Part shown: positions 382 through 36,204 of the stretch, piece after piece | Position numbering within the stretch: position 1 is the first letter of the stretch | How the letters are laid out: each line of letters opens with the position of its first letter | Virus record (IMG/VR): IMGVR_UViG_3300023223_000105 | Location: 1 to 37,256 of that record | DNA length: 37,256 nt | DNA from: a virus | Strand: one strand, 5' to 3' | Made by a program: the position numbers and the translations under genes | Notes under the pieces: generated by a model | What the model saw: the letters and a program-made list of their open reading frames with translations, nothing else | Database searches by the model: none | Told to the model about the DNA's origin: nothing

Positions 382-798
382 CTAAACAATAGTTATTTTT
401 ATGCCATACTCTGCTTCTGTATGACGAATTTTCCATTTAGACAAGGAGGTAATAATCCAGTCGCCTTTACCCTTCTTGGCCTTCTTATCCCACGCCTTAA
501 CGTCTTCGTATACCCACAGTTGAGTTCTGTTATTTACATACTTAAAGTCCGCAATATATTTGCCAATCTTACCCTCTCCCGGCTCTTTTCTGCATGATAA
601 TGCAGCGTGTAATTCAAAGGCTGGATGTGGTTCGAGATAAAGTATCTCCCCCCCTTTCTCCAGCAGCCTCAACTCCCCATAACGCTTTGCTTCGACCTTG
701 CTGGCAAAGGTAATCCCGTCAACTACTGTTTTCTTTGCGTTGTATTTATTCTTCCTGAATCCTGCCATAAAATCTGGTGGTTGGGGTAGCTCTGACAT
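382..798 (-). CDS. DUF1064-family protein (PD-(D/E)XK-like nuclease, putative Holliday-junction resolvase), 138 aa.
   Basis: Track ORF 382..819. The motif NKYNAKKTVVDGITFASKVEAKRYGELRLLEKGGEI...YIADFKY is typical of DUF1064. The preferred start is ATG 798 (MSELPQ..), which overlaps the upstream stop as TAATG and has AAGGA 7 nt upstream. Confidence 0.8.
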   Translation of the reverse strand: MSELPQPPDFMAGFRKNKYNAKKTVVDGITFASKVEAKRYGELRLLEKGGEILYLEPHPAFELHAALSCRKEPGEGKIGKYIADFKYVNNRTQLWVYEDVKAWDKKAKKGKGDWIITSLSKWKIRHTEAEYGIKITIV

Positions 799-1010
799 TA
801 CACATCCTTTACCAGCCAACCACCTGCTGGAATGGCTCCGTTGCTTACTCGGTCAAAATCAACCTTTAGCTTGTCACTGGGGTTTGATTTTCCTGTCACA
901 ATATTAGATATGTGCTCAGGGGTTTTTTTCACCTGCAATGCAAGCTGCTTCTGGTATCCCCAGGGGTGGATGTCTATGTATTTCTTGAGGTCTCTTCTTC
1001 CTAGTGTCAT
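798..1010 (-). CDS. Small helix-turn-helix DNA-binding protein (Cro/YdaS-like), 70 aa.
   Basis: GYQKQLALQVKKTPEHISNIVTGK resembles an HTH. ATGA overlap with the upstream ORF. Confidence 0.6.
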   Translation of the reverse strand: MTLGRRDLKKYIDIHPWGYQKQLALQVKKTPEHISNIVTGKSNPSDKLKVDFDRVSNGAIPAGGWLVKDV

Positions 1011-2944: not shown

Positions 2945-3015
2945 ACCCGATGATGAATACATAGCTAATATGGATGAACAACAGAGATATGATAACTGGT
3001 TAATGGAGGATGATA

Positions 3016-3669
3016 ATGACGATACACGAAGTGCTACACACAATACAACAGGAGCTTAAGGCTCCCAAAGATAAATACAGCACCTATGGTGAATACAACT
3101 ACCGCTCCCTTGAGGGTATTGTAGAGGCCGTAAAACCACTACTGCCTGAAGGGGTTACTTTAACTTTCTCAGACAAGCTTGTTGAGATAGCTAGTGTGGT
3201 CTTTGTGGAAGGAATAGGGACTCTTGCAAGTGCCGAGGGCTCAATATCTGTTAGTGGCTTTGCTCGCCACGATAGAGAAAGAAAGAAGATGCAATCTGAG
3301 CAGCTAACGGGGTCAGCCTCTTCTTATGCTCGTAAGTATGCAGCTAACGGTCTGTTCGCCATTGATGACACAAAAGATACTGACACCGACGAAAGCCACA
3401 AAGAGAGGCAAGCGGCGGAAACTGCCATGAAGAAAGAGAATGCAATAAGGGCTGGGGAAATATTTGATGACCACAATAATAAACTTATGGGCTTTGAGTC
3501 TACCGAAGGTGATGAATTTAAGGAGTGGTGGGCTTCCAAGAAGGACGAGCGCCAGGAATTGCATAAATTAGATACACATAAGGCAGTCACTCTTGTGGCA
3601 AATATGAAGATTAAGTGTAAGGAGTTCCTGGAAAAAGCACCATGTGAAGTGCTTATAGGGGGTGAGTGA
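3016..3669 (+). CDS. erf: Erf-family single-strand annealing recombinase.
   Basis: YNYRSLEGIVEAVKPLLPEG ... GSASSYARKYAANGLFAIDD matches the conserved ERF pattern. Track start is 3010. ATG 3016 has better spacing from GGAGG. Confidence 0.8.
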   Translation: MTIHEVLHTIQQELKAPKDKYSTYGEYNYRSLEGIVEAVKPLLPEGVTLTFSDKLVEIASVVFVEGIGTLASAEGSISVSGFARHDRERKKMQSEQLTGSASSYARKYAANGLFAIDDTKDTDTDESHKERQAAETAMKKENAIRAGEIFDDHNNKLMGFESTEGDEFKEWWASKKDERQELHKLDTHKAVTLVANMKIKCKEFLEKAPCEVLIGGE

Positions 3670-4892: not shown

Positions 4893-5060
4893 ATGGATAG
4901 GATGATTGGACATATGTGGTTGATAGCGTCTATCTTTTATGCGCTATTATCAGGTAGCGGCATACAATATACCGCAGTTAGTGTGCTAATGGCACTCAGC
5001 GGGTGCCTTATCCTGGGAGTGGTGGCTTATGAAGAAACGACCAAACAAAGCAACCCGTGA
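4893..5060 (+). CDS. Small membrane protein, 55 aa (not in the track).
   Basis: The ATG is preceded by GGGAGGG. Translation MDRMIGHMWLIASIFYALLSGSGIQYTAVSVLMALSGCLILGVVAYEETTKQSNP has two hydrophobic segments. It overlaps the next ORF by 32 nt, so it is uncertain. Confidence 0.4.
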   Translation: MDRMIGHMWLIASIFYALLSGSGIQYTAVSVLMALSGCLILGVVAYEETTKQSNP

Positions 5061-5304
5061 ATTAGAGGCGCGCATGAGAGAGTTTGGCTGTATAATATGC
5101 AAGAGACCCGCTGTTATACATCACATTACAGGTGCGGGTATGGGGTTAAAGTCTGAGAAGTTCTTTCCTCTTTGTCCGACCCATCATACAGATGGGGGAT
5201 TCGGTAACGCCGTCCACTCTGGAACGGAAACCTGGGAAGCTATATTTGGTACGCAAGAGGAATTGTTTAATAGGACTATGGAGAGACTAAATGGAAGGCT
5301 TTAA
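5029..5304 (+). CDS. Ref-like RecA-dependent HNH nuclease (recombination enhancement family), 91 aa.
   Basis: The pattern GCIICKRPAVIHHITGAGMGLKSEKFFPLCPTHHTDGGFGNAVHSG matches the C..C/HH/PLC..HH signature I associate with the Ref / RecA-dependent nuclease family. Confidence 0.6.
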   Translation: MKKRPNKATRELEARMREFGCIICKRPAVIHHITGAGMGLKSEKFFPLCPTHHTDGGFGNAVHSGTETWEAIFGTQEELFNRTMERLNGRL

Positions 5305-5883: not shown

Positions 5884-6261
5884 ATGGTGGTGAGTGAATT
5901 TAAAGCGGGCGATAAGGTCATACGCACAGTTGTTACAAAAACTGAGTATACGGTAGTCAAAGCAACAAAAGAGAATGTTTGGTTAGAGACTTGTTATGGT
6001 GGAATACCAATCTCGGAAACAGAACATAAGGGACAAAAAACGACCGACAATTACCAATGTGATGCCATGTATTACGAAAAGTGCTTGAGGGATTTGAGGG
6101 ATGTTTTTACCCAAACACTGGTATATGTCAAGAAAGTTGGCGACCAACAAATGATTGCTGTCTGTAACATAAAGATCACCGAGATCACGGAAATACTGGA
6201 ACACAAATACGAACTTGACGGCGTAGATTTAGATAAACCTAACTATGGGATGTTTGAGTGA
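5884..6261 (+). CDS. Hypothetical protein, 125 aa.
   Basis: Track ORF with AAAGGAG immediately upstream. The exact start is uncertain (ATG 5884 or GTG 5887/5890). Confidence 0.7.
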   Translation: MVVSEFKAGDKVIRTVVTKTEYTVVKATKENVWLETCYGGIPISETEHKGQKTTDNYQCDAMYYEKCLRDLRDVFTQTLVYVKKVGDQQMIAVCNIKITEITEILEHKYELDGVDLDKPNYGMFE

Positions 6262-6626
6262 TGAAGGAAACAGCCAAGCAACGCTCAATACGCCAGAACA
6301 ACTACCGCTGGGGTGTTGTGGTTAAAACTGTTATGGACGCTATGAATCTGGAGCTTAAAGCAAGGGGTTGTGAATATCGCCTCAAGTCCGAAGATGTAGA
6401 CCTGTTTATCAAAGACCACGCACTTGGTATAGTACATAGGATAAAAACCTCGATCGGTGAGTTCATTATAGTGGGGAAATTAAAGACCAGATCTCCAGGT
6501 GACTTTGAAGAAGCTATGGAGCAGATTAGGGCGCATTTTGCACAACTTGAAACCAACCCTATATATATTGCCTTACCGAATGAACCTACTTACGATGATT
6601 TAAAGGATAACCTAGATAGGGAGTAA
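6261..6626 (+). CDS. NinB/Orf-like recombination mediator (tentative), 121 aa.
   Basis: N-terminal RSIRQNNYRWGVV resembles the RS.DQN..LW motif of lambda NinB. It lies in a recombination gene context and has a TGATG overlap with the upstream gene. Confidence 0.5.
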   Translation: MKETAKQRSIRQNNYRWGVVVKTVMDAMNLELKARGCEYRLKSEDVDLFIKDHALGIVHRIKTSIGEFIIVGKLKTRSPGDFEEAMEQIRAHFAQLETNPIYIALPNEPTYDDLKDNLDRE

Positions 6627-7164: not shown

Positions 7165-7565
7165 GGCTCTAACCTCTTGATTTCAAGTGTGAATGGTTGG
7201 TGTTTTATTATCTTGCGTAGCTCCTTCATGGCATCCCCCGAATGTAGTACCATAGGGTCATAAAAGGCGGGATCAACTCCTGTTCCTGGGAGTATACAGC
7301 CACTGGTGTTACGTTCGTAGTTTCCTTTATGGAATAGTATTCCGGATCTGGCGGGAACGTCATGAACCTTATAAACATCTACGTATTTCATACTACTGTA
7401 GGAGGAGCAATCATATCTCCCCTCTGGGATACAGGATACATTGCGCCTATTGTCCTTCCAGGGGTTCTCCAGGGTGAAGATAGGCCAGTGGTCTATGCCC
7501 TTGATATTCAGCATACCAAAGGTTACAGCGTCATTCAGGAAGAATCTTGTGAGGGTTATTTCCAT
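7161..7565 (-). CDS. DUF5675-family protein; candidate endolysin by position only.
   Basis: TLENPW..N...SCIPEGRY ... VPARSGILFHKGN....TSGCILPG matches the DUF5675 signature. ATGA overlap with the holin. Confidence 0.6.
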   Translation of the reverse strand: MEITLTRFFLNDAVTFGMLNIKGIDHWPIFTLENPWKDNRRNVSCIPEGRYDCSSYSSMKYVDVYKVHDVPARSGILFHKGNYERNTSGCILPGTGVDPAFYDPMVLHSGDAMKELRKIIKHQPFTLEIKRLEP

Positions 7566-7567
7566 AT

Positions 7568-7963
7568 CTATCCCATGAAATGGTTACCTAGGTAACCAAA
7601 TGCGGAAGCTAGGCATACAATCAAAACATATTTTGCTCCACTGTTCCATAACATTTCCTTTCTAGCCTCCCCCCGGGCTTTGTCTTTTTCTACATAATCA
7701 ATAGTGACCTGATGCTCGTTCAACCGACCCATCACATCCGAATGTGCCGTTTGGAACTCATCAAAACCATGAGACATCTGTAGAGAGAGTGCATCTATGG
7801 ACTCTTTGGTCATCTTCTGTCCTGCGTTCAGATCATCTGTGTGGCGATCTTGACGCTTGTTAGAGGCAACTTGCCCCCCCTTTATCTCTATAATCTCTCC
7901 ATGGTCAGAGTTTACTTTATCCTCTACCCTCTGAACCCAAGCTTTTGTTTCTTTTAGTGTCAC
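7568..7963 (-). CDS. Coiled-coil protein with C-terminal membrane anchor, 131 aa (possible lysis accessory).
   Basis: C-terminal hydrophobic segment AKYVLIVCLASAFGYLG. It is adjacent to the lysis genes. Confidence 0.5.
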   Translation of the reverse strand: MTLKETKAWVQRVEDKVNSDHGEIIEIKGGQVASNKRQDRHTDDLNAGQKMTKESIDALSLQMSHGFDEFQTAHSDVMGRLNEHQVTIDYVEKDKARGEARKEMLWNSGAKYVLIVCLASAFGYLGNHFMG

Positions 7964-8226
7964 TCTTCCTCACTCGCCACCCAATCTTCCGGCCTTGCGT
8001 CATGCTCTGTAAAGCCGGGGATCAGCACCGCCTCAAGCTCTGCCAGTGTTTTACTATGTTTTTCTTCCGGCTTCGCAAATCCCCATTTGTCCTCCGTGAT
8101 AGATTTACTCACATCTGCCCAGGTGTTCATAGTATACCCATTCTGAATAGGGCAACCATAAACCACATTCACAGCAGCTAAAGACGTATCTGCGTCCGCC
8201 TGATTGTCCCATGTTAAAAATGCCAT
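7960..8226 (-). CDS. Hypothetical protein, 88 aa.
   Basis: Track ORF 7960..8256. ATG 8226 (MAFLTWDN..) lies 6 nt after AGGGG and does not overlap the upstream gene. Confidence 0.6.
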   Translation of the reverse strand: MAFLTWDNQADADTSLAAVNVVYGCPIQNGYTMNTWADVSKSITEDKWGFAKPEEKHSKTLAELEAVLIPGFTEHDARPEDWVASEEE

Positions 8227-8234
8227 AATTACCC

Positions 8235-9164
8235 CTATACTAAAGTTATTGCCCATTTATTAGATAAATAATTCTCGACTGCTGATATTTCTGCTGTTGA
8301 TAATGAGCGGTCATACAGGATTATTTCGGCACAATCCCCCGTGAAGAATAAATCTGCATCACGGAAAGAGAATAAGAACATTTCATCTATGCCGCTTTCG
8401 TCAGCTCCATTCGCATCTGTTGTTTCCGCACTTCCATTAACAGCTATAGCTTGCGTTGTTCCGCTCCTACGCCCCCGTATGATATTCCAATTGGTATTGG
8501 TATTACCTGTCTTTGCAACTGGAGAATTAGAAGTGCTACTAACAAAATTAAGAGTGCCGGCGGTGGCACTGTATTGTATATAGTACCTACTTCCAGCCCC
8601 CTCGCTGCCATTGAACAGCCTTTGTATTGCTGCCGTCTCTGAGGCTATTCTTGAGACTGTAAAGATGGTATTGGCTCCCATTGTAATATTATGCAATGCA
8701 CTTGGCATCTTTAAGGTGTCGCCGCCATCAGCGGTAATTACGTTCAGGAAATTTTTGGTAGTGGAACCCGTAGTTGGCTGCTTTGAGCCAGTGCTTTGTA
8801 CGTCCGTATTATTACCATTACTCGACTTATCAGCCCACTGGCTGACGCTACCACCAGATTGAACTATATTTGTAGCCGACGTGTCCGCAGCATCAAACCA
8901 CAACTGACACCCTTCCAGTATAATTGGCACACCCCCAACAGACTGCCAATTATGCGCACCCGCTAAATCTGCAAATTCCTGCTTAAGTCCATCGAGATTA
9001 GTTGAACTACTGCCCGTTCTATCTTGAAGCCATTGGATAAAAACACCATTAAACTCCCCGGTAAAACTCTCAGTGGCAGCGGCTGTTAGGAAGTCGGTAT
9101 TATAATCACTAGCACTACCCCCAATAGCCCTAAAGAACGCTTGCATGTCGCCTTGTTGTGTCAT
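8235..9164 (-). CDS. Tail fibre / receptor-binding protein with LamG (concanavalin-like lectin) domain, 309 aa.
   Basis: LWFDAADTS...VSQWADKSSNGNN ... GDCAEIILYDRSLSTAEISAVENYLSNKWAI is the typical Laminin_G_3 pattern. Confidence 0.7.
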   Translation of the reverse strand: MTQQGDMQAFFRAIGGSASDYNTDFLTAAATESFTGEFNGVFIQWLQDRTGSSSTNLDGLKQEFADLAGAHNWQSVGGVPIILEGCQLWFDAADTSATNIVQSGGSVSQWADKSSNGNNTDVQSTGSKQPTTGSTTKNFLNVITADGGDTLKMPSALHNITMGANTIFTVSRIASETAAIQRLFNGSEGAGSRYYIQYSATAGTLNFVSSTSNSPVAKTGNTNTNWNIIRGRRSGTTQAIAVNGSAETTDANGADESGIDEMFLFSFRDADLFFTGDCAEIILYDRSLSTAEISAVENYLSNKWAITLV

Positions 9165-9176
9165 TATTTTTCCTCT

Positions 9177-9440
9177 CTAAAGAGCGTTAACATCGTCAAT
9201 TATATCATCTATTTCTGTTGACCTTGCGTTGCATATGACAACATCAGCAGTATTATCAGTTATTTGCTGGTTCATACTAGTACTAGCTATTACTAGCTGC
9301 TCACTTTCTTTCGTCAATTTTTCTAAATAAGTAGATTCCAATTGTGTATAAGATGTGACAGTTTGCACACCACTAACCAAGTAATCCTCAACCACATCCA
9401 CATACGAAGGATCAACATTTAATGTTACTGTAGTTCCCAT
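9177..9440 (-). CDS. Hypothetical virion-module protein, 87 aa.
   Basis: Track ORF within the tail gene block. Confidence 0.6.
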   Translation of the reverse strand: MGTTVTLNVDPSYVDVVEDYLVSGVQTVTSYTQLESTYLEKLTKESEQLVIASTSMNQQITDNTADVVICNARSTEIDDIIDDVNAL

Positions 9441-30482: not shown

Positions 30483-30649
30483 GATTCCTCCGGGTAATTC
30501 ATTTCAGTAAGCTCTTGAAGCTTCTTTAAGTCAGTGGCCTTGCGTATGTTGTTTACTAGGCTTTGAAGGTCGTACTCAACGCCCGCATAATCCCAACCCA
30601 GATTATCTAATTCATTCTGTAACGCTGCAATACCCTCTTTATCGGTCAT
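30479..30649 (-). CDS. Hypothetical acidic protein, 56 aa.
   Basis: Track ORF 30479..30673. ATG 30649 lies after GGAGGAGG and overlaps the upstream stop (ATGA). Confidence 0.6.
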   Translation of the reverse strand: MTDKEGIAALQNELDNLGWDYAGVEYDLQSLVNNIRKATDLKKLQELTEMNYPEES

Positions 30650-30990
30650 GATTTCCTCCTCCTGGCATCCCACTCCTTAACCTGCGCCTTGTTGACCATC
30701 TTAGCGCATCGAACGTGGTACTTGCGGTTGTAGTGAGGGTTTACCATCAGGTCAAAACAACCCTCCCGTTGGCAAGCCCTATATGTTGCTCGCGGTACCT
30801 CAAACTTAACCTCTGGGGCTTCTATTTCGTCTATTGGTAGGGGCTGTGATTTACGCTCCGGCTGATGCTCTGGATATAAATTTGTAAGTATAACCGTCGG
30901 CAACGCCTTCTTCAGTTTGTCGTGATAGGTTGGTTTTGGCTTGTCGTGTTTCCAGAAGTTCGCTAGGCGATTGAGTAGTTTACTGAACAT
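30646..30990 (-). CDS. Hypothetical basic protein with a Cys/His cluster, 114 aa.
   Basis: CQREGC...HYNRKYHVRC suggests metal binding. Its start lies inside junction repeat J3. Confidence 0.6.
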   Translation of the reverse strand: MFSKLLNRLANFWKHDKPKPTYHDKLKKALPTVILTNLYPEHQPERKSQPLPIDEIEAPEVKFEVPRATYRACQREGCFDLMVNPHYNRKYHVRCAKMVNKAQVKEWDARRRKS

Positions 30991-31258
30991 GGTCTTTCTC
31001 CTCTTTGAGATTTATAGTGTCATCGCAATACTTACATACCTTTGCTGGGCGGTATTTATCATAGTGCGTCCAACTACTTCCAAATTCACCCCAACGCGTA
31101 ACGCCTTCTCCCACACCTACATTCTTTAATTCATATTCGTGCTTGCCTTTCTGGCAGTTCAACTGCGATTGTAATTTATCACACCTATAGGCTAAATTCT
31201 TATTTGTGACAGACAAATAAACCTCCAAGTCTTTTAGTCTTTTATTCCACCCGAACAT
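30980..31258 (-). CDS. Hypothetical Cys-containing protein, 92 aa.
   Basis: Track ORF 30980..31369. ATG 31258 (MFGWNK..) lies inside the J3 repeat after GAGGAGAAAG. Cysteine pattern C-x9-C ... CKYC. Confidence 0.55.
   Translation of the reverse strand: MFGWNKRLKDLEVYLSVTNKNLAYRCDKLQSQLNCQKGKHEYELKNVGVGEGVTRWGEFGSSWTHYDKYRPAKVCKYCDDTINLKEEKDHVQ
30985..31004 (-). repeat. Junction repeat J3, copy a (gaacatggtctttctcctct).
   Basis: 19/20 identical to 31253-31272. On the coding strand it reads AGAGGAGAAAGNCCATGTTC, which is the upstream gene tail plus SD plus start codon. Confidence 0.85.
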
Positions 31259-31556
31259 GGCCTTTCTCCTCTGTTTGTAGGGCTTGTTCAGATAATTTAT
31301 CCACTTTATTCCAATCTGGACATTCCTCAATTTGGGGGTCAGCGTTACGACATACCTCTCTAAACGCAACTTCGCTCTCCAACGCCTCCCGTAGCTTCTC
31401 CTCTTGCTTGGTGGTGGCTTCTGCTCTCACCTTCTCGGCAGCTTCAAGGGCGGCTCTGCCAAATCTTTCGGCACTATATGAACATGAGTCTTCAGCTCTA
31501 AATGTGCATTTCATTACAGCTAAACGAGCAGCTTTTATTTCCTTCTCTGTTGGCAT
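31242..31556 (-). CDS. Hypothetical protein, 104 aa.
   Basis: Track ORF. Its C-terminal EEKGHV tail is encoded inside J3 copy b. Confidence 0.6.
   Translation of the reverse strand: MPTEKEIKAARLAVMKCTFRAEDSCSYSAERFGRAALEAAEKVRAEATTKQEEKLREALESEVAFREVCRNADPQIEECPDWNKVDKLSEQALQTEEKGHVRVE
31253..31272 (-). repeat. Junction repeat J3, copy b (gaacatggcctttctcctct).
   Basis: 19/20 identical to 30985-31004. Confidence 0.85.
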
Positions 31557-31558
31557 AA

Positions 31559-31885
31559 TCAGGACTCCTTCTTGGGTGGGGTGGGTAGGGGTTGCCAGCG
31601 AGTTGCATCGACCTTTGTATTAGAGGTGCGCTTCCAGCATGGTTTTCTTATCCATATATCCCAAAGCCCGTGGTACGACTCTTTGTAAATATCACTCCAA
31701 AGAATCATTATAGTCCCATCCTTCGGTGCCGTCTCAATCGGTTGCCACTCCCTCTCTTTCACCAGGGCGGATAGCTCTGCTATTAGCTGCTTATGCTCAC
31801 TGCTGATAACTTGCAAATCCTTATGTCCGTGCTCTTTTTCCACTTCGTCAGCCGCCTTGAGTAGTTTTTCTGTGGTTCTGGGCAT
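31559..31885 (-). CDS. DUF551-like protein, 108 aa (second copy in the genome).
   Basis: REWQPIETAPKDGT ... ATRWQPLPTPP matches the DUF551 signature. ATG 31885 lies 7 nt after GGAGAG in junction repeat J2. Confidence 0.65.
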   Translation of the reverse strand: MPRTTEKLLKAADEVEKEHGHKDLQVISSEHKQLIAELSALVKEREWQPIETAPKDGTIMILWSDIYKESYHGLWDIWIRKPCWKRTSNTKVDATRWQPLPTPPKKES

Positions 31886-31915
31886 CAATCACTCTCCTTT
31901 TTGCAGTTGGTTGAT
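31886..31915 (-). repeat. Junction repeat J2, copy a (caatcactctcctttttgcagttggttgat).
   Basis: 29/30 identical to 32779-32808. The coding strand reads ATCAACCAACTGCAAAAAGGAGAGTGATTG, i.e. INQLQKGE-stop plus SD. Confidence 0.9.
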
Positions 31916-32779
31916 GTATCCCTTAAATTCCTGTATCCACTCATAAGATAACTTACTGAATTGGTTGTTCTCTGGCGTATCTCCTGCCGAAATTCCGAGG
32001 AAAAACCTTTCAATCGGACGTGAACCATCCCTCATATCACATTTCCCCTCAAATCTTTTAGATTTTTCAATCGTCCCACATAAACACGCACACTCACCTT
32101 CGTAAGTTGTTCCCTCAATCTTACCCCCAAGGATGGCTTTCTCAAGTAACGGTATCTCTGGGATAGCACGGAGTAGAACATCAAACATATCCCTCTTTAT
32201 CGGATCAAGGTTTGCGCCACGGAGGTTTGCGCCACGGAAGTTTGCGCCACGGAGGTTTACGTCACCGAGGTTTACGCCACCGAGGTCTGCGTCACGGAGG
32301 TTTACGTAACTGAGGTTTGCGTAACTGAGGTCTGCGTAACTGAGGTCTGCGCCACGGAGGTTTACGCCACCGAGGTCTGCGTCACGGAGGTTTGCGTAAC
32401 TGAGGTTTGCGTAACTGAGGTCTGCGTAACTGAGGTCTGCGCCACGGAGGTTTACGCCACCGAGGTCTGCGTCACGGAGGTTTGCGTAACTGAGGTTTAC
32501 GTAACTGAGGTTTGCGCCACCGAGGTCTGCGTCACCGAGGTTTACGCCACGGAGGTTTGCGTAACTGAGGTTTACGTAACTGAGGTTTGCGCCACCGAGG
32601 TCTGCGTCACCGAGGTTTACGCCACGGAGGTTTGCGTAACTGAGGTCTGCGCCACCACTAACCGCTTTCTTTATCGCTTCTCCTTTTTTCAAGGCATCAC
32701 TTTTAACTTCAAAACTTGCATCAATATCACAGGTGAACACGACCTTACCGGAAAACCTATCGTTAATCTCAAACTTCAC
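31889..32779 (-). CDS. Pentapeptide-repeat protein, 296 aa (N-terminal ~42 aa, ~30 pentapeptides, ~105-aa Cys-containing C-terminal domain).
   Basis: GADLSYANLRGVNLGDADLGGANLSYVNLSYANLRG... is a canonical A(D/N)LxX repeat. The GTG at 32779 occupies the position of the ATG in the paralogous J2 junction (track start 32785). Confidence 0.85.
   Translation of the reverse strand: MKFEINDRFSGKVVFTCDIDASFEVKSDALKKGEAIKKAVSGGADLSYANLRGVNLGDADLGGANLSYVNLSYANLRGVNLGDADLGGANLSYVNLSYANLRDADLGGVNLRGADLSYADLSYANLSYANLRDADLGGVNLRGADLSYADLSYANLSYVNLRDADLGGVNLGDVNLRGANFRGANLRGANLDPIKRDMFDVLLRAIPEIPLLEKAILGGKIEGTTYEGECACLCGTIEKSKRFEGKCDMRDGSRPIERFFLGISAGDTPENNQFSKLSYEWIQEFKGYINQLQKGE
32207..32656 (-). repeat. 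Tandem 15-bp periodic coding repeat organised in 75- and 90-bp higher-order units.
   Basis: 32281-32370 vs 32371-32460 are 89/90 identical. 32511-32570 vs 32586-32645 are 60/60 identical. Confidence 0.9.
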
Positions 32780-32808
32780 AATCACTCTCCTTTTTGTAGT
32801 TGGTTGAT
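32779..32808 (-). repeat. Junction repeat J2, copy b (caatcactctcctttttgtagttggttgat).
   Basis: 29/30 identical to 31886-31915. A degenerate third copy (aagttggttgat, 32966-32977) lies in the next spacer. Confidence 0.9.
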
Positions 32809-32949
32809 AAATTCAGCAACCGCTTTAGCCTTCTCGATTGAAAGCTTTGTTACATTTCTATCAATCTCTTCCCCCTTGCTATCAAGAAAGATGCCAGTAA
32901 TCCTAACTATCTCATCATCACCTACTGAACACTCGTATTTTATTTTCAT
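32782..32949 (-). CDS. Small protein, 55 aa (not in the track), ending in the same FINQLQKGE tail as the pentapeptide protein.
   Basis: My translation is MKIKYECSVGDDEIVRITGIFLDSKGEEIDRNVTKLSIEKAKAVAEFINQLQKGE. AAGGAAAAGCC lies upstream of the ATG. Confidence 0.5.
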   Translation of the reverse strand: MKIKYECSVGDDEIVRITGIFLDSKGEEIDRNVTKLSIEKAKAVAEFINQLQKGE

Positions 32950-33000
32950 GGCTTTTCCTTACTAAGTTGGTTGATATATGCTTTTACCTTGGTAATCCAG

Positions 33001-33168
33001 TCAGGCCTTAGCCATTACCCGTAATGCCATTAATACACTTTCGGGTATCGGGTGTTCACCTTTAGACCACCTTCCAACCGTCCTGCGGTTGACCTTGAAG
33101 GTTCTGGCTAGCTTTGATTGCCAGCCGTCACCAAATACTTCTTGCCCTAGTTGGTTAAATTCTTTCAT
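33001..33168 (-). CDS. Small HTH DNA-binding protein, 55 aa.
   Basis: GWQSKLARTFKVNRRTVGRWSKGEHPIP is HTH-like. ATG 33168 lies 2 nt after the upstream stop (track start 33186). Confidence 0.6.
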   Translation of the reverse strand: MKEFNQLGQEVFGDGWQSKLARTFKVNRRTVGRWSKGEHPIPESVLMALRVMAKA

Positions 33169-33170
33169 TA

Positions 33171-33428
33171 TTATGTTACAGCCCATAATTGAGTTTTCTT
33201 ACCCGTCACTTCCTCGTATTGATTGCGCCAATCAATAGCGTCAGCAACACACTCGCCTTTATTGTCATATAAATGATTAGGAACGTCACCAGACGGGGAT
33301 CCAGGTAAAAGAGAGGCAATGTAACCACCATGAAAATCATTATAAGTTACATGAATCACCGCTTCAAAACCGTTGCGCTCAGCGGCGTTAAGTACATCAA
33401 CTGCGGTGTGTTTATTTTCTTTAGACAT
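33171..33428 (-). CDS. Hypothetical acidic protein, 85 aa.
   Basis: Track ORF with AAAGGAG SD. About 12 acidic vs 7 basic residues. Confidence 0.65.
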   Translation of the reverse strand: MSKENKHTAVDVLNAAERNGFEAVIHVTYNDFHGGYIASLLPGSPSGDVPNHLYDNKGECVADAIDWRNQYEEVTGKKTQLWAVT

Positions 33429-33463
33429 AATCGAACTCCTTTCCGATACTTTGCAGCAAATGC

Positions 33464-33607
33464 CTAGTGCCTTTGCCTGATACCTTTATATACTGGGTGG
33501 GACATTGTGTCAAGGGCTTCTTTCACTTTTCTGCAAATAAACCTCATACCCACATAAGCCCATATAAGCAGCGTACAGGTGAAGAGGATTACTGGTAGGG
33601 CGTGCAT
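33464..33607 (-). CDS. Small membrane protein, 47 aa.
   Basis: Track ORF 33464..33667. ATG 33607 (MHALPVILFTCTLLIWAYVG..) lies in junction repeat J1 after AAAGGAG. Confidence 0.55.
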   Translation of the reverse strand: MHALPVILFTCTLLIWAYVGMRFICRKVKEALDTMSHPVYKGIRQRH

Positions 33608-33622
33608 CGTAATTACTCCTTT
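33605..33622 (-). repeat. Junction repeat J1, copy a (catcgtaattactccttt).
   Basis: 18/18 identical to the start of copies b and c. The coding strand reads AAAGGAGTAATTACGATG, with the upstream stop TAA inside the SD-start spacer. Weaker similarity extends about 30 nt further. Confidence 0.85.
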
Positions 33623-33831
33623 CGTTTCTCTAAGGTGGGTTTCTGCTCGATTACGGATGTAGTCCACCCTATTTTTAAAACCTGTGCATAAGGCTGGTTA
33701 TTTTCCGCATAATCTATCGCCTCTTGCTTGTCTACGAAAACAGGCATCACCCCATACAGTCCATCGGTTGATAAATCGACCATCCCCGCGTTTGTTGTCA
33801 ATCTCGTCCACATCCGTGTTACTAAGTACAT
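33613..33831 (-). CDS. Hypothetical protein, 72 aa.
   Basis: Track ORF. Its start lies in J1 copy b and its stop in J1 copy a. Confidence 0.6.
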   Translation of the reverse strand: MYLVTRMWTRLTTNAGMVDLSTDGLYGVMPVFVDKQEAIDYAENNQPYAQVLKIGWTTSVIEQKPTLEKRKE

Positions 33832-33994
33832 CGTAATTACTCCTTTGGTTGCTTAGGGGGCTTTCTGTTCGATTAAACCTAGGCTCAAGCGCGAATGGAC
33901 TCTCCTCAAGCTCACGAATCCGCTCCTTATGCCACGCTATTAACTCATTTCTTTCCTGGGTATCTAGTTCGTCTTTATCTGCGGTCCACTTCAT
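33698..33994 (-). CDS. Hypothetical protein, 98 aa as read. The last ~44 codons overlap the next gene out of frame, so the stop may have been lost.
   Basis: Track ORF. It starts in J1 copy c and reads through J1 copy b in a frame that misses the TAA used by the paralogous junctions. Confidence 0.45.
   Translation of the reverse strand: MKWTADKDELDTQERNELIAWHKERIRELEESPFALEPRFNRTESPLSNQRSNYDVLSNTDVDEIDNKRGDGRFINRWTVWGDACFRRQARGDRLCGK
33829..33861 (-). repeat. Junction repeat J1, copy b (catcgtaattactcctttggttgcttagggggc).
   Basis: 33/33 identical to 33992-34024. Confidence 0.9.
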
Positions 33995-34024
33995 CGTAAT
34001 TACTCCTTTGGTTGCTTAGGGGGC
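33992..34024 (-). repeat. Junction repeat J1, copy c.
   Basis: 33/33 identical to 33829-33861. Confidence 0.9.
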
Positions 34025-34161
34025 GTCCCTGTGGGTTTGGTGGTGGGTTTCTCCTCCTCCTCGACAGTCGCATCAATGAAAGTTACGCCCTGCGATTCAA
34101 AGAACTTCATAAACGCATTGGTTCTTGCGTCTAATTTTGATTTATCAATTGGTTTAGGCAT
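34000..34161 (-). CDS. Small protein, 53 aa (not in the track).
   Basis: My translation is MPKPIDKSKLDARTNAFMKFFESQGVTFIDATVEEEEKPTTKPTGTPPKQPKE. AGGAGAACGACC lies upstream, and the stop is the TAA inside J1 copy c. Confidence 0.5.
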   Translation of the reverse strand: MPKPIDKSKLDARTNAFMKFFESQGVTFIDATVEEEEKPTTKPTGTPPKQPKE

Positions 34162-34180
34162 GGTCGTTCTCCTGGTTACA

Positions 34181-34202
34181 GTCTCAAGTCGTAAGTTATC
34201 GC
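34181..34202 (-). repeat. Intergenic repeat J4, copy a (gtctcaagtcgtaagttatcgc).
   Basis: 22/22 identical to 34408-34429. It lies 20 nt upstream of a start codon, and the flanks are also similar. Confidence 0.9.
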
Positions 34203-34205
34203 CGC

Positions 34206-34388
34206 TCAGCCTCCCGCCTTCGAATCCTCCATTGCTTCCTTTAAAATATCCAGTTTGGCTATTTCTAGCACCCCCACTATTCCCGACACTGGCAAGCCCT
34301 CCCCTCTGTCGTATAGTAAATCTTTTATAGCATCCACTAGGGTTTCAAAACGTTGGTCACATTCATGTAATTGAGCTACTTTATTCAT
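34206..34388 (-). CDS. Hypothetical protein, 60 aa.
   Basis: Track ORF with AAGGAGACGATT upstream of the ATG. Confidence 0.6.
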   Translation of the reverse strand: MNKVAQLHECDQRFETLVDAIKDLLYDRGEGLPVSGIVGVLEIAKLDILKEAMEDSKAGG

Positions 34389-34407
34389 AATCGTCTCCTT
34401 GGGTTAG

Positions 34408-34429
34408 GTCTCAAGTCGTAAGTTATCGC
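34408..34429 (-). repeat. Intergenic repeat J4, copy b.
   Basis: 22/22 identical to 34181-34202. It lies 19 nt upstream of the start codon at 34388. Confidence 0.9.
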
Positions 34430-34442
34430 TATGCACGTCATG

Positions 34443-34646
34443 CTAATTAATCCAGCCTCGTGCGTTTCGTTTTCGGTATTTATCCCAATGTGGGAGTTTA
34501 GCCTTTTTGGAATCTTTCTTGTCAACGAAAGGGGATTCAATAAGCCACGGCTTGTGCCAAGTCGCACGGCATGGGTACGCATATGTGTCCAAACAAGTGC
34601 AGTCCCATTCCTCAGTCCCAGTACCGGTGCCTTTAATTAGAGTCAT
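34443..34646 (-). CDS. Hypothetical Trp/Cys-containing protein, 67 aa.
   Basis: Track ORF. The competing ORF 34385..34582 looks like a shadow. Confidence 0.6.
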   Translation of the reverse strand: MTLIKGTGTGTEEWDCTCLDTYAYPCRATWHKPWLIESPFVDKKDSKKAKLPHWDKYRKRNARGWIN

Positions 34647-35004: not shown

Positions 35005-35543
35005 TTGGCGTTATCCCCATCAGCCTGCCTTATTGCATCCTCAATTAGCAGCCGTTCATCCGGTGAGGTTGTGGTCTTGGCAGCAACAAAGTCTTCCACG
35101 TATTGATCCTCTGCCCTGGTAGTAAATACATTCTCACGTTTCTTGCGCTTGATTTCCAGAAACGTTACTTTGCACCACTCTATCGGTTCAACTGGTGGCT
35201 CTATGATTTTCACAATATCCGCTGGCTTTGGCATCACTGTCTTGGTTTCCATGTAAGTCCTGAATGCAGACTCAACGTCCTCAATCGTGAACCTGCCAAG
35301 CACTAGCTGAAAAGCCCCCTCCAGATTCTTTAGCTGCTCCGGCTCCTTCCCGTATGTATCCAGCGTGTCAAAGCATATTAGCAGGAGTGACATCAATCGG
35401 GACTTGTGGCTCTCGTTCTGGTTTATCGAGTCCGAGTGCGATTCTGGCTCTTTGGTGTTTGCTGAGTTTTCCTCCTCCTTGGGTTTTCGGTTGGCATCGA
35501 TCCCAGTCAAAAGCGTTTTTGTATGCTGCGATAAAGTTTTCAT
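34989..35543 (-). CDS. Possible replisome-organiser / helicase-loader-like protein; start unresolved (GTG 35579, ATG 35543 or ATG 35393).
   Basis: Track ORF 34989..35579. The C-terminal two thirds look globular (RFTIEDVESAFRTYMETKTVMPKPADIVKII). The N-terminal ~60 codons are low-complexity and overlap the DUF1376 gene. Confidence 0.55.
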   Translation of the reverse strand: MKTLSQHTKTLLTGIDANRKPKEEENSANTKEPESHSDSINQNESHKSRLMSLLLICFDTLDTYGKEPEQLKNLEGAFQLVLGRFTIEDVESAFRTYMETKTVMPKPADIVKIIEPPVEPIEWCKVTFLEIKRKKRENVFTTRAEDQYVEDFVAAKTTTSPDERLLIEDAIRQADGDNAKYWID

Positions 35544-36204
35544 ATCTTGGCTTTCCTCCTTCTTTGGTTTTAGATTCACAATAGTTCTTAAAAGTTTCTA
35601 TTATGGCCTGCTCGTCATGGTGGAGATACTTTCCCTCAATACGTTTTTTGGCCAACCACTCCTGGACGTGATTTACTGACAACTCTTCTAAGGTAACTTG
35701 CTTCTTTTTTACCAAAGGTTTTTTTCTTTTAGGAGTAGGAGTAGGAGTAGGAGTAGGGGAGGCATCGCCCCGGCTATGCCCGGCGGATGCCGTTGCATGA
35801 GCTGAATCCTTAGTTTTCAACCACCTAGCCTTTGCTTTACGACTCTGGTTTTGTGATAGTAACTTCACTGCCGTGAGTTCGTCTTTTAATCTTAGCTGCA
35901 CCCATGTGGAATCCTGAACCAAAAAGAACGGCTCAATAATCGGTCGCATTCTCTTCCAGTGATTCAATCTAAGCTTGCTATATCTGGCCAGCATAATGTC
36001 ATCATCAGGCAAGGCTCCGTCCTTGGATCGCCACGCAACTATTAGCAAAAGCAGATACGCACCATGCTCTATAGTGGTAAGGTGTGTGGTGTCGCCTAAA
36101 TAAGCGTCAGTCCACAAGGGAAAAGCTGGAAATTGTGCCACGACTACCTCAACGTCAAAGGTTACGTCTTTTGTACAAGCGGGGGGAGACGTTGATCCCC
36201 CCAT
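35368..36204 (-). CDS. DUF1376 (YdaU-like) replication-associated protein with a (PT)n linker and C-terminal domain, 278 aa.
   Basis: FPLWTDAYLGDTTHLTTIEHGAYLLLLIVAWRSKDGALPDDDIMLARYSKL..W is the DUF1376 signature. The start is uncertain (ATG 36204 has no SD; GTG 36141 follows GAGG). Confidence 0.75.
   Translation of the reverse strand: MGGSTSPPACTKDVTFDVEVVVAQFPAFPLWTDAYLGDTTHLTTIEHGAYLLLLIVAWRSKDGALPDDDIMLARYSKLRLNHWKRMRPIIEPFFLVQDSTWVQLRLKDELTAVKLLSQNQSRKAKARWLKTKDSAHATASAGHSRGDASPTPTPTPTPKRKKPLVKKKQVTLEELSVNHVQEWLAKKRIEGKYLHHDEQAIIETFKNYCESKTKEGGKPRYENFIAAYKNAFDWDRCQPKTQGGGKLSKHQRARIALGLDKPEREPQVPIDVTPANML

Follow-up and report, generated by a model that had tools for sequence, protein, structure and literature searches.

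Pentapeptide-repeat proteins have been described in several systems, including Qnr, MfpA, McbG and AlbG and the type III effectors NleL and SopA, in which a domain with an essential Cys is attached to a pentapeptide β-helix that serves for scaffolding or targeting. Among phages, the P22-like pentapeptide-repeat gene orf19 of ST104 (L002, NC_005841.1, 3938-4582) lies directly after ral in the early-left operon. In this study we analysed a pentapeptide-repeat gene in a viral DNA of 37,256 nucleotides (nt), positions 1 to 37,256 of the IMG/VR record IMGVR_UViG_3300023223_000105, and this whole stretch is referred to as the window. The gene is located on the minus strand at 31889-32785. Its predicted product consists of an N-terminal cap (N-cap), a long repeat array and a C-terminal domain (C-domain), and on sequence evidence it belongs, as a new member, to a large uncharacterised family of accessory proteins from phages and prophages, which combine an N-cap, a β-helix of variable length that is usually acidic, and a strictly conserved C-domain of about 105 residues. 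This family appears in the databases only as "pentapeptide repeat-containing protein". It is distinct from Qnr, MfpA, McbG, AlbG, the cyanobacterial Rfr proteins, NleL and SopA by its undescribed conserved C-x-C domain and its hypervariable rod.

The window protein is similar to the topoisomerase-protecting proteins Qnr, MfpA, McbG and AlbG in the predicted length of its β-helix (~7.5 coils) and in its net acidity, but it scores far below the thresholds of these families, its helix is uninterrupted, it has no dimerisation helix and it carries an extra conserved domain of 104 residues. At the DNA level, its exact repeats reach 104 nt compared with 8 nt in qnrB1, and array length is hypervariable in its family. 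NleL and SopA match the window protein by fold in the β-helix part, whereas the C-domain has no fold match to the HECT-like lobes or to the rest of the PDB, and the window protein belongs to a phage rather than being a secreted effector. A HECT-like domain of the NleL/SopA type was considered and rejected, with NF011904 scoring 31.9 bits against a cutoff of 500 and the best PDB match of the C-domain at E = 3.3. The DNA-mimic anti-restriction proteins Ocr and ArdA are, like the window protein, acidic and elongated products of phages or mobile elements, encoded in accessory-gene regions. They differ from it in fold, no sequence similarity to them was detected, and the charge density of the window array is modest (-7 over 150 residues).

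The ST104 orf19 product, too, is an accessory protein of a phage in which pentapeptide repeats are combined with a C-terminal domain that lacks them. Its gene contains an 84-nt exact repeat, and within its array the proportion of non-synonymous differences (pN) is 0.18 while that of synonymous differences (pS) is 0.02. However, its N-terminal segment and C-terminal domain are unrelated to those of the window protein and it has no C-x-C, so that it represents an analogous family and not the same one; it would be a second family of the "repeat rod plus C-terminal domain" type. Phages L and ST64T are more than 99.9% identical, and one of only two differences between them is a 15-bp deletion of one pentapeptide in orf232 of the early-left operon (bioRxiv 10.1101/2020.10.05.325894). 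This orf232 may be the counterpart of ST104 orf19.

The window gene was recognised in the list of open reading frames (ORFs) and by Pfam PF00805, with a stop codon at 31889-31891 and a product of 298 residues when read from the first GTG. A second GTG (32779) lies two codons further in and yields a product of 296 residues that begins MKFEIN. Since the homologues begin MKFEI and an AAGGAG ribosome-binding site is found 7 nt 5' of this second GTG, the latter is the likelier start and the true product is probably the one of 296 residues. The 298-residue numbering is used here. It divides into a 44-residue N-cap (residues 1-44, 32654-32785, minus strand), 30 pentapeptides (residues 45-194, 32204-32653, minus strand) and the 104-residue orphan C-domain (residues 195-298, 31892-32203, minus strand), which is predicted to be mainly α-helical and defines the family. 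An ORF at 32133-32309 on the plus strand and further ORFs in other frames or on the opposite strand within 32200-32650 (e.g., RFAPRRFAPRK...) are by-products of the repeat periodicity and not genes.

The family was found by searching with the C-domain alone, and the proteins retrieved had the same three-part architecture. The C-domain profile gave 1741 clusters at 90% identity, an exhaustive profile search gave at least 1190 clusters at 50% identity among 1.84 billion representatives, and matches to the family profile had E values of 1e-35 to 1e-46. In nearly all of the best 150 matches the domain was at or near the C-terminus, and the preceding region of 0-200 residues held pentapeptide repeats only; a Pfam scan of ten atypically long members also gave pentapeptide repeats and no other domain. 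The C-domain exists without any repeats in P0002, P0008, P0100 and P0120. Judged by these sequences, the family is defined by its orphan C-terminal domain and not by the repeats. According to the GTDB assignments it is spread over Bacteroidota, Alpha- and Betaproteobacteria, Verrucomicrobiota, Planctomycetota, Acidobacteriota, Cyanobacteria, Bacillota, Actinomycetota and Gemmatimonadota.

Eleven columns of the C-domain (D199, E210, G221, G225, Y228, C232, C234, T238, E259, F262 and W283) were at least 97% invariant in 264 diverse members, and seven more (L204, G230, L235, G237, I265, G268 and P271) were at least 95% invariant in the same set. Several of these residues fall in the motif Y-E-G-E-C-A-C-L-C-G-T (residues 228-238, 32072-32104, minus strand), which was also evident in the alignments. 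The window protein carries every family-invariant column, including C-x-C-L-x-G-T, and its N-cap is of the type MKFEIxNRxxGxVxF followed by a helix. The original prediction had pointed to a C-terminal domain with a Cys cluster, and this domain is indeed present and conserved across the family; it had been treated as an appendage, whereas it is actually the most conserved part of the family and also occurs alone. Seven strictly conserved polar residues within about 100 residues suggest a site for binding or catalysis more than a surface for packing or dimerisation. The C-domain had no match in Pfam, NCBIfam or PHROGs, and comparison with the PDB by sequence and by profile gave none either (best E = 0.64, at chance level).

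The family members most similar to the window protein (L084, P0023, P0029 and P0041) are 79-83% identical to it in the C-domain and 45-65% identical in the N-cap. Their arrays contain 11-29 units of wholly different unit types, and the window types (YANLS, YVNLS, DADLG and others) are not shared with them. These members and others, such as gp49 of Bordetella phage vB_BaM-IFTN6 (UOK17382.1), have the same architecture, invariant residues, DNA repeat behaviour and kind of genomic neighbourhood as the window gene, which differs from them in having its own unit types and, with 30 units, in lying in the upper tail of array length. The exact window protein was not found on record, megablast of 30500-34500 against the phage collection gave no close DNA relative, and the best IMG/VR match of the terminase large subunit of the carrying phage was 54% identical.

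The array matched PF00805 with 200.4 bits against a cutoff of 20.2 (E = 1.8e-60). AlphaFold2 modelled the full-length protein with a mean predicted local distance difference test score (pLDDT) of 76.6. In this model the N-cap forms a β-hairpin (strands at residues 2-8 and 15-22) and a helix (residues 30-43) ahead of the array, and the array forms one strand per five residues over residues 51-192, with pLDDT values of 78-91 in its C-terminal half and 43-67 in its N-terminal half. The top Foldseek matches in the PDB were pentapeptide solenoids, with the synthetic beta1 and Np275/276 at E ~1e-12, while MfpA and QnrB1 matched more weakly at ~1e-7. The array is thus predicted by the model to fold as a right-handed quadrilateral β-helix, as the original prediction had anticipated. 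When the C-domain was modelled alone from an alignment of 55 sequences, the pLDDT was 89.6 and the predicted template modelling score was 0.82, and Foldseek found no match for this model in the PDB (best E = 3.3) or in BFVD.

The window array has a net charge of -7 over its 150 residues and an isoelectric point of 4.27. Family arrays were net negative in 151 of 180 cases (84%) and net positive in 12, with a median charge of -0.27 per unit compared with -0.14 per five residues in QnrB1. The fold and the charge together bear on the idea that the protein is a DNA mimic of the Qnr/MfpA type, which would bind DNA gyrase or topoisomerase IV, or block DNA-binding defence enzymes in the manner of Ocr and ArdA, with helix length tuning the mimicry. 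By analogy, the modelled β-helix with MfpA and Qnr among its PDB fold matches, and an acidic array in a family whose arrays are more acidic per five residues than QnrB1, would both suit such a mimic. The window array, at about 7.5 coils, is close in size to a monomer of MfpA. Counter-defence genes typically occupy such a genomic position, the unrelated ST104 pentapeptide-repeat gene adjoins ral, and the distribution over many phyla would fit a universal target.

These points are outweighed by others, and we consider a mimic of this type unlikely. The NCBIfam models for Qnr (NF033086, 51.7 bits against a cutoff of 240) and MfpA (NF000349, 52.7 bits against a cutoff of 360) stayed far below their cutoffs, and all models of Qnr subfamilies gave at most 55 bits against cutoffs of 425-500; membership of either group was rejected. 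The Qnr architecture (loops A and B, a dimerisation helix and no further domain) was also rejected, because the window protein has 30 uninterrupted units, no Qnr-type loops and, in place of a C-terminal dimerisation helix, a conserved 104-residue multi-helix domain. The MfpA and Qnr fold matches were weaker than those of generic or synthetic solenoids, and the helix is not the most conserved part of the protein. In addition, the family tolerates about 2 to 57 units without whole-coil preference, which is hard to reconcile with a fixed docking geometry, and 12 of the 180 arrays are net positive. Mimicry by itself is also insufficient for anti-defence activity, since McbG and QnrB, bona fide pentapeptide "mimics", failed to inhibit the BREX defence system (PMC7261183). 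The label "DNA-mimic type" and the gyrase or defence target put forward in the original prediction therefore stand as an analogy, reasonable in itself, that the tests run did not support. Its claims about the sequence, namely the gene, the array, the repeats, the Cys cluster and the flanking repeats, all hold, and support was obtained for the modelled pentapeptide-repeat β-helix, the recent expansion, the length variation and the cassette; the Qnr/MfpA-type framing did not pass the comparison with those families.

About 30 consecutive A(D/N)LxX units had been noted in the array, and 30 uninterrupted units were counted. Tandem Repeats Finder reported a period of 15 with 29.9 copies over 32208-32655, and also periods of 75 and 90. 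The 90-nt (6-unit) higher-order repeat spans 32281-32498 and consists of two copies, 32281-32370 and 32371-32460, which are identical at 89 of 90 positions as previously noted, and a partial third copy identical at 38 of 38. The longest exact run at the 90-nt offset is 104 nt (32305-32408 = 32395-32498). For the 75-nt (5-unit) repeat, spanning 32473-32646, the earlier figure of 60 identical positions of 60 proved an understatement, as the exact run is 99 nt (32473-32571 = 32548-32646). In the protein, units 2-6 are the same as units 7-11 (the 5-unit block), and units 13-18 are nearly the same as units 19-24 (the 6-unit block).

Codon usage in the array is nearly uniform, with GCA for 21 of 21 Ala, CTC for 28 of 29 Leu and GAC for 16 of 17 Asp, while all nine Asp codons elsewhere in the same gene are GAT. 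Gly is encoded by GGC at the first position of a unit and by GGT at the last. The codon usage of the array is not equilibrated with that of the rest of the gene. Most polymorphism within the 15-nt unit falls at positions 1, 2, 5, 7 and 13, where all changes are non-synonymous; they affect four of the five unit positions, three exposed and one inward, and never the central Leu. The duplicated blocks show no synonymous difference, and the control qnrB1 has a longest in-frame exact shift match of only 8 nt. Since almost a single codon is used per amino acid, changes between units are mostly non-synonymous and the control lacks long repeats, the array is evolutionarily young or continually homogenised, and the 5-unit and 6-unit blocks were gained recently in this phage. 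The recent expansion proposed earlier is therefore borne out.

Similar behaviour was observed throughout the family. Array dynamics were studied in 79 IMG/VR loci. Of 76 genes, 72 contained in-frame exact shift repeats of 30 nt or more, 32 contained repeats of 60 nt or more and 10 contained repeats of 90 nt or more, the longest being 269 nt. The offsets were any multiple of one unit and not multiples of four, and array length showed no whole-coil preference (p = 0.38, n = 46). The arrays had about 2 to 57 units (median 10), and 12 of 310 members had at least 30 units; among the IMG/VR copies, which reach 57 units, 8 of 58 did so. Relatives from short metagenomic contigs bias array length downward and make the window protein look exceptionally long.

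The variation in length that had been predicted from the window alone is found among close relatives. L113 and L139 are 100% identical in the DNA of the N-cap and C-domain and have 12 and 23 units, respectively. L145 and L147 differ by 3 units with flanking DNA identities of 98.9% and 99.7%. L136, L138 and L159 have arrays of 71, 131 and 96 residues at DNA identities of 99-100% in the N-cap and 96.6-96.9% in the C-domain, and L151, whose N-cap and C-domain are of the same type, remains intact as a gene at about 2 units. Arrays of about 16-34 units are carried by eight orthologues, in which pN/pS is 0.05 in the C-domain and 0.07 in the N-cap at a pS of about 0.4, a sign of strong purifying selection on both end domains. 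Between the units of a single array, which are paralogous and subject to gene conversion, pN/pS exceeds 1 in 66 of 70 arrays, with a median of 2.4 and a value of 7.5 in the window. Such differences between units fit a diversification of exposed residues on a homogenised DNA scaffold.

Another explanation of these data is that the array is a passive, near-neutral spacer, that the function resides entirely in the C-domain, and that the gain and loss of repeats are a by-product of recombination-prone DNA. The four stand-alone C-domains, the intact L151 gene with about 2 units, the range of about 2 to 57 units without coil periodicity, and the far stronger constraint on the end domains than on the array all agree with it. 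It is harder to reconcile with the maintenance of the reading frame and of the pentapeptide consensus, as seen in the 30 uninterrupted window units and in the complete family copies of the IMG/VR loci, every one of which reads in frame from the array into the C-domain. The differences between units are mostly non-synonymous and spare the central Leu in the window, the acidic bias is consistent across arrays, and the N-cap, which is there only to cap the helix, is itself under strong purifying selection. On balance we regard a purely passive array as possible but doubtful.

The number of units in the window could also be an assembly artefact, produced by collapse or spurious expansion, which would leave the existence of the gene unaffected. 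The exact repeats, at 99-104 nt, are nearly as long as short reads. Moreover, 20 of 75 family genes in IMG/VR end at a contig edge before the C-domain, mostly inside the array (L086, L087, L090, L092, L098, L101, L104, L110, L112, L120, L121, L124, L129, L131, L133, L135, L137, L143, L146 and L156). This proportion is far above the ~1% share of an array in a 40-kb genome, and therefore the arrays break assemblies. The L113 and L139 pair, with identical flanks and a difference of 11 units, comes from contigs with adjacent dataset numbers, so that either real variation or collapse may be involved. For the window, however, the reading frame is unbroken and the blocks are arranged coherently, told apart by single substitutions, and comparable or longer arrays are present in IMG/VR contigs apparently derived from isolate genomes, as judged by their identifiers. 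An artefactual unit number in the window thus seems improbable. Nevertheless, the arrays are favoured break points of short-read assemblies, and the unit counts in databases, possibly including that of the window, need caution.

The window represents a podovirus-like phage genome, or most of one, with genes for a terminase, a portal protein, lysis and a major capsid protein that shares about 50% identity with its counterparts in Bradyrhizobium and Mx8-like phages; no close relative of this phage was found in the collections searched. The pentapeptide-repeat gene is part of a long run of co-directional small ORFs between a gene for a DUF1376 replication-type protein (35368-36204, minus strand) and the terminase gene. 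It abuts its neighbours on both sides. Upstream, a 55-residue ORF (32782-32949, minus strand) with only a weak PHROG match (E = 0.0075) has its stop overlapping the start of the gene, and a small helix-turn-helix gene is located two ORFs upstream of the gene; downstream, the start of a 109-residue ORF of unknown function (31559-31888, minus strand) abuts its stop. Elsewhere in the window, we found genes for an Erf-family annealing protein (3010-3669, plus strand), a DUF1064 protein (382-819, minus strand) and a DUF968/RecA-dependent-nuclease-like protein (5029-5304, plus strand).

The gene is bracketed by two junction repeats, 31886-31915 and 32779-32808, which are identical at 29 of 30 positions and directly oriented. 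On the minus strand, the downstream copy encodes ...INQLQKGE and contains the stop, an AAGGAG ribosome-binding site and the start of the next gene; the upstream copy contains the 3' end of the 55-residue ORF, which has the same INQLQKGE tail, together with the start of the pentapeptide-repeat gene and its ribosome-binding site. The proposal of a discrete cassette bounded by these repeats, named J2 at the time, is consistent with this layout, and recombination between the two copies would cut out the gene precisely.

In phages and prophages alike, the relatives are surrounded by genes for immunity, recombination and replication. The gene follows the repressor gene in Bordetella phage IFTN6 and is co-directional there with Ea22-like, HNH and exonuclease VIII genes, its position in a B. 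bronchiseptica prophage is between an S24 repressor and HNH, Erf, YqaJ and single-stranded DNA-binding protein (SSB) genes, and in L084 it is just upstream of an unannotated ORF of 215 residues and an SSB-like ORF. Accessory positions such as these are typical of host-takeover and counter-defence genes, which provides context and not proof. The largest cluster of non-family ORFs comprised 19 of 83 loci at varying distances, in a clustering whose ORF calls included many spurious ORFs in GC-rich loci. A scan for promoters and terminators gave counts no different from those of shuffled sequence. The early expression assumed in the original prediction is a reading of gene order. None of the PADLOC models matched the protein, the C-domain or either neighbouring ORF at E <= 0.01.

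On the chromosome of Devosia sp. CN2-171 (L164), a stand-alone C-domain gene of 108 residues without repeats (6001-6327) is located in an integrative element with a serine recombinase nearby, and a CD-NTase and patatin pair resembling CBASS (7366-9182) lies about 1 kb away.

These surroundings raise the further question of whether the protein benefits the lysogen, as a prophage moron acting in superinfection exclusion, defence or protection of a host enzyme. Many copies reside in prophages near the immunity region, the Devosia gene adjoins the CD-NTase and patatin pair, and the ST104-type gene is near sieB and gene 17. In contrast, no PADLOC defence model was matched, the window gene runs in the same direction as the lytic-cycle replication and accessory genes that it abuts, and no integrase or CI-type repressor was identified among the window ORFs scanned, in a search that was not exhaustive. 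A benefit to the lysogen is, in our view, the least probable of the explanations considered.

Further direct repeats of 20-50 nt were present in the small-ORF region (30985-31004/31253-31272; 33605-33637/33829-33861/33992-34024; 34153-34202/34380-34429; 34641-34664/34981-35004), with one pair in the region identical at 33 of 33 positions. The exact pair 33829-33861 and 33992-34024 spans the last codons of one ORF, its stop, a ribosome-binding site and the next start, a layout like that of the junction repeats flanking the pentapeptide-repeat gene. The direct repeats of the small-ORF region may be recombination joints for the swapping of gene cassettes. In the spacer between the helix-turn-helix ORF and the 55-residue ORF (32950-33000, minus strand), one frame reads W-I-T-K-V-K-A-Y-I-N-Q-L-S-K-E-K-P-stop. 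It weakly resembles the C-terminal tail EWIQEFKGYINQLQKGE of the family, with the 11-nt core ATCAACCAACT in common, and may have been left behind by an earlier cassette joint or by a gene copy since lost.

We tentatively favour a composite reading, to which we give a somewhat less than even chance, in which a core C-domain is combined with a tuned acidic rod, the protein interacts with the host before late expression, and units are turned over by the repeats. In this model, the C-domain would be the core functional module, because it can exist alone and carries invariant polar residues, and it may bind a ligand or a metal or provide a small catalytic site (D199, E210, Y228, C232-x-C234, T238 and E259). 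The acidic rod would be a fast-evolving surface for docking to a protein of the host, which may itself bind nucleic acids, and the length and exposed residues of the rod would be tuned or diversified in an arms race. To the phage, the protein would be of use before the late phase of infection, in taking over the host or countering its defences. Units would be gained and lost by unequal recombination or slippage between the exact repeats of 75-104 nt, a turnover that the Erf-type annealing protein of the phage itself may favour, and phage populations would be expected to be heterogeneous in repeat number in steps of 75 and 90 nt.

Several observations weigh against this composite reading. The C-domain has no detectable relative of known function, so that a catalytic or ligand-binding role is suggested by nothing more than its pattern of invariant polar residues. 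Acidity is not universal, given the 12 net positive arrays, and the stand-alone C-domains and the copy with about 2 units indicate that the rod is dispensable. The pN/pS between units is not a standard test, as the units are paralogous and undergo gene conversion, and diversifying selection is not proven by it. The timing of expression is inferred from gene order only. No neighbour was conserved at a fixed position in the all-versus-all ORF clustering of the 83 loci, and the gene therefore behaves as a single-gene accessory module. Literature searches returned no functional characterisation of any phage pentapeptide-repeat protein.

A bolder version, which is rather unlikely, would make this a "contingency" protein carried by phages of many bacterial phyla, with the orphan C-x-C domain as a new small enzyme or a new ligand- or metal-binding module on a rod whose length and exposed residues are constantly reshuffled through repeat recombination under diversifying selection. 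If so, the phage could in this way keep up with or escape a host factor, for example a DNA-binding defence or repair enzyme, and the family would represent a previously undescribed class of protein for interaction with the host, comparable at the protein level to phase-variable repeat loci.

Specialists would not be surprised by repetitive DNA in a pentapeptide-repeat gene of a phage, but the family-wide pattern and the orphan domain merit an experiment. Such genes are routinely annotated and then ignored, or loosely named "Qnr-like" or quinolone-resistance genes, and what defines one large group of them is an undescribed, strictly conserved C-terminal domain that probably contains an active or a binding site. 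The findings argue against counting such phage genes as antibiotic-resistance determinants. Should the family turn out to act in counter-defence or host takeover, it would provide a new marker that is widespread and easy to recognise, offer a natural length series for relating β-helix length to function and give warning of hot spots of assembly error and population heterogeneity.

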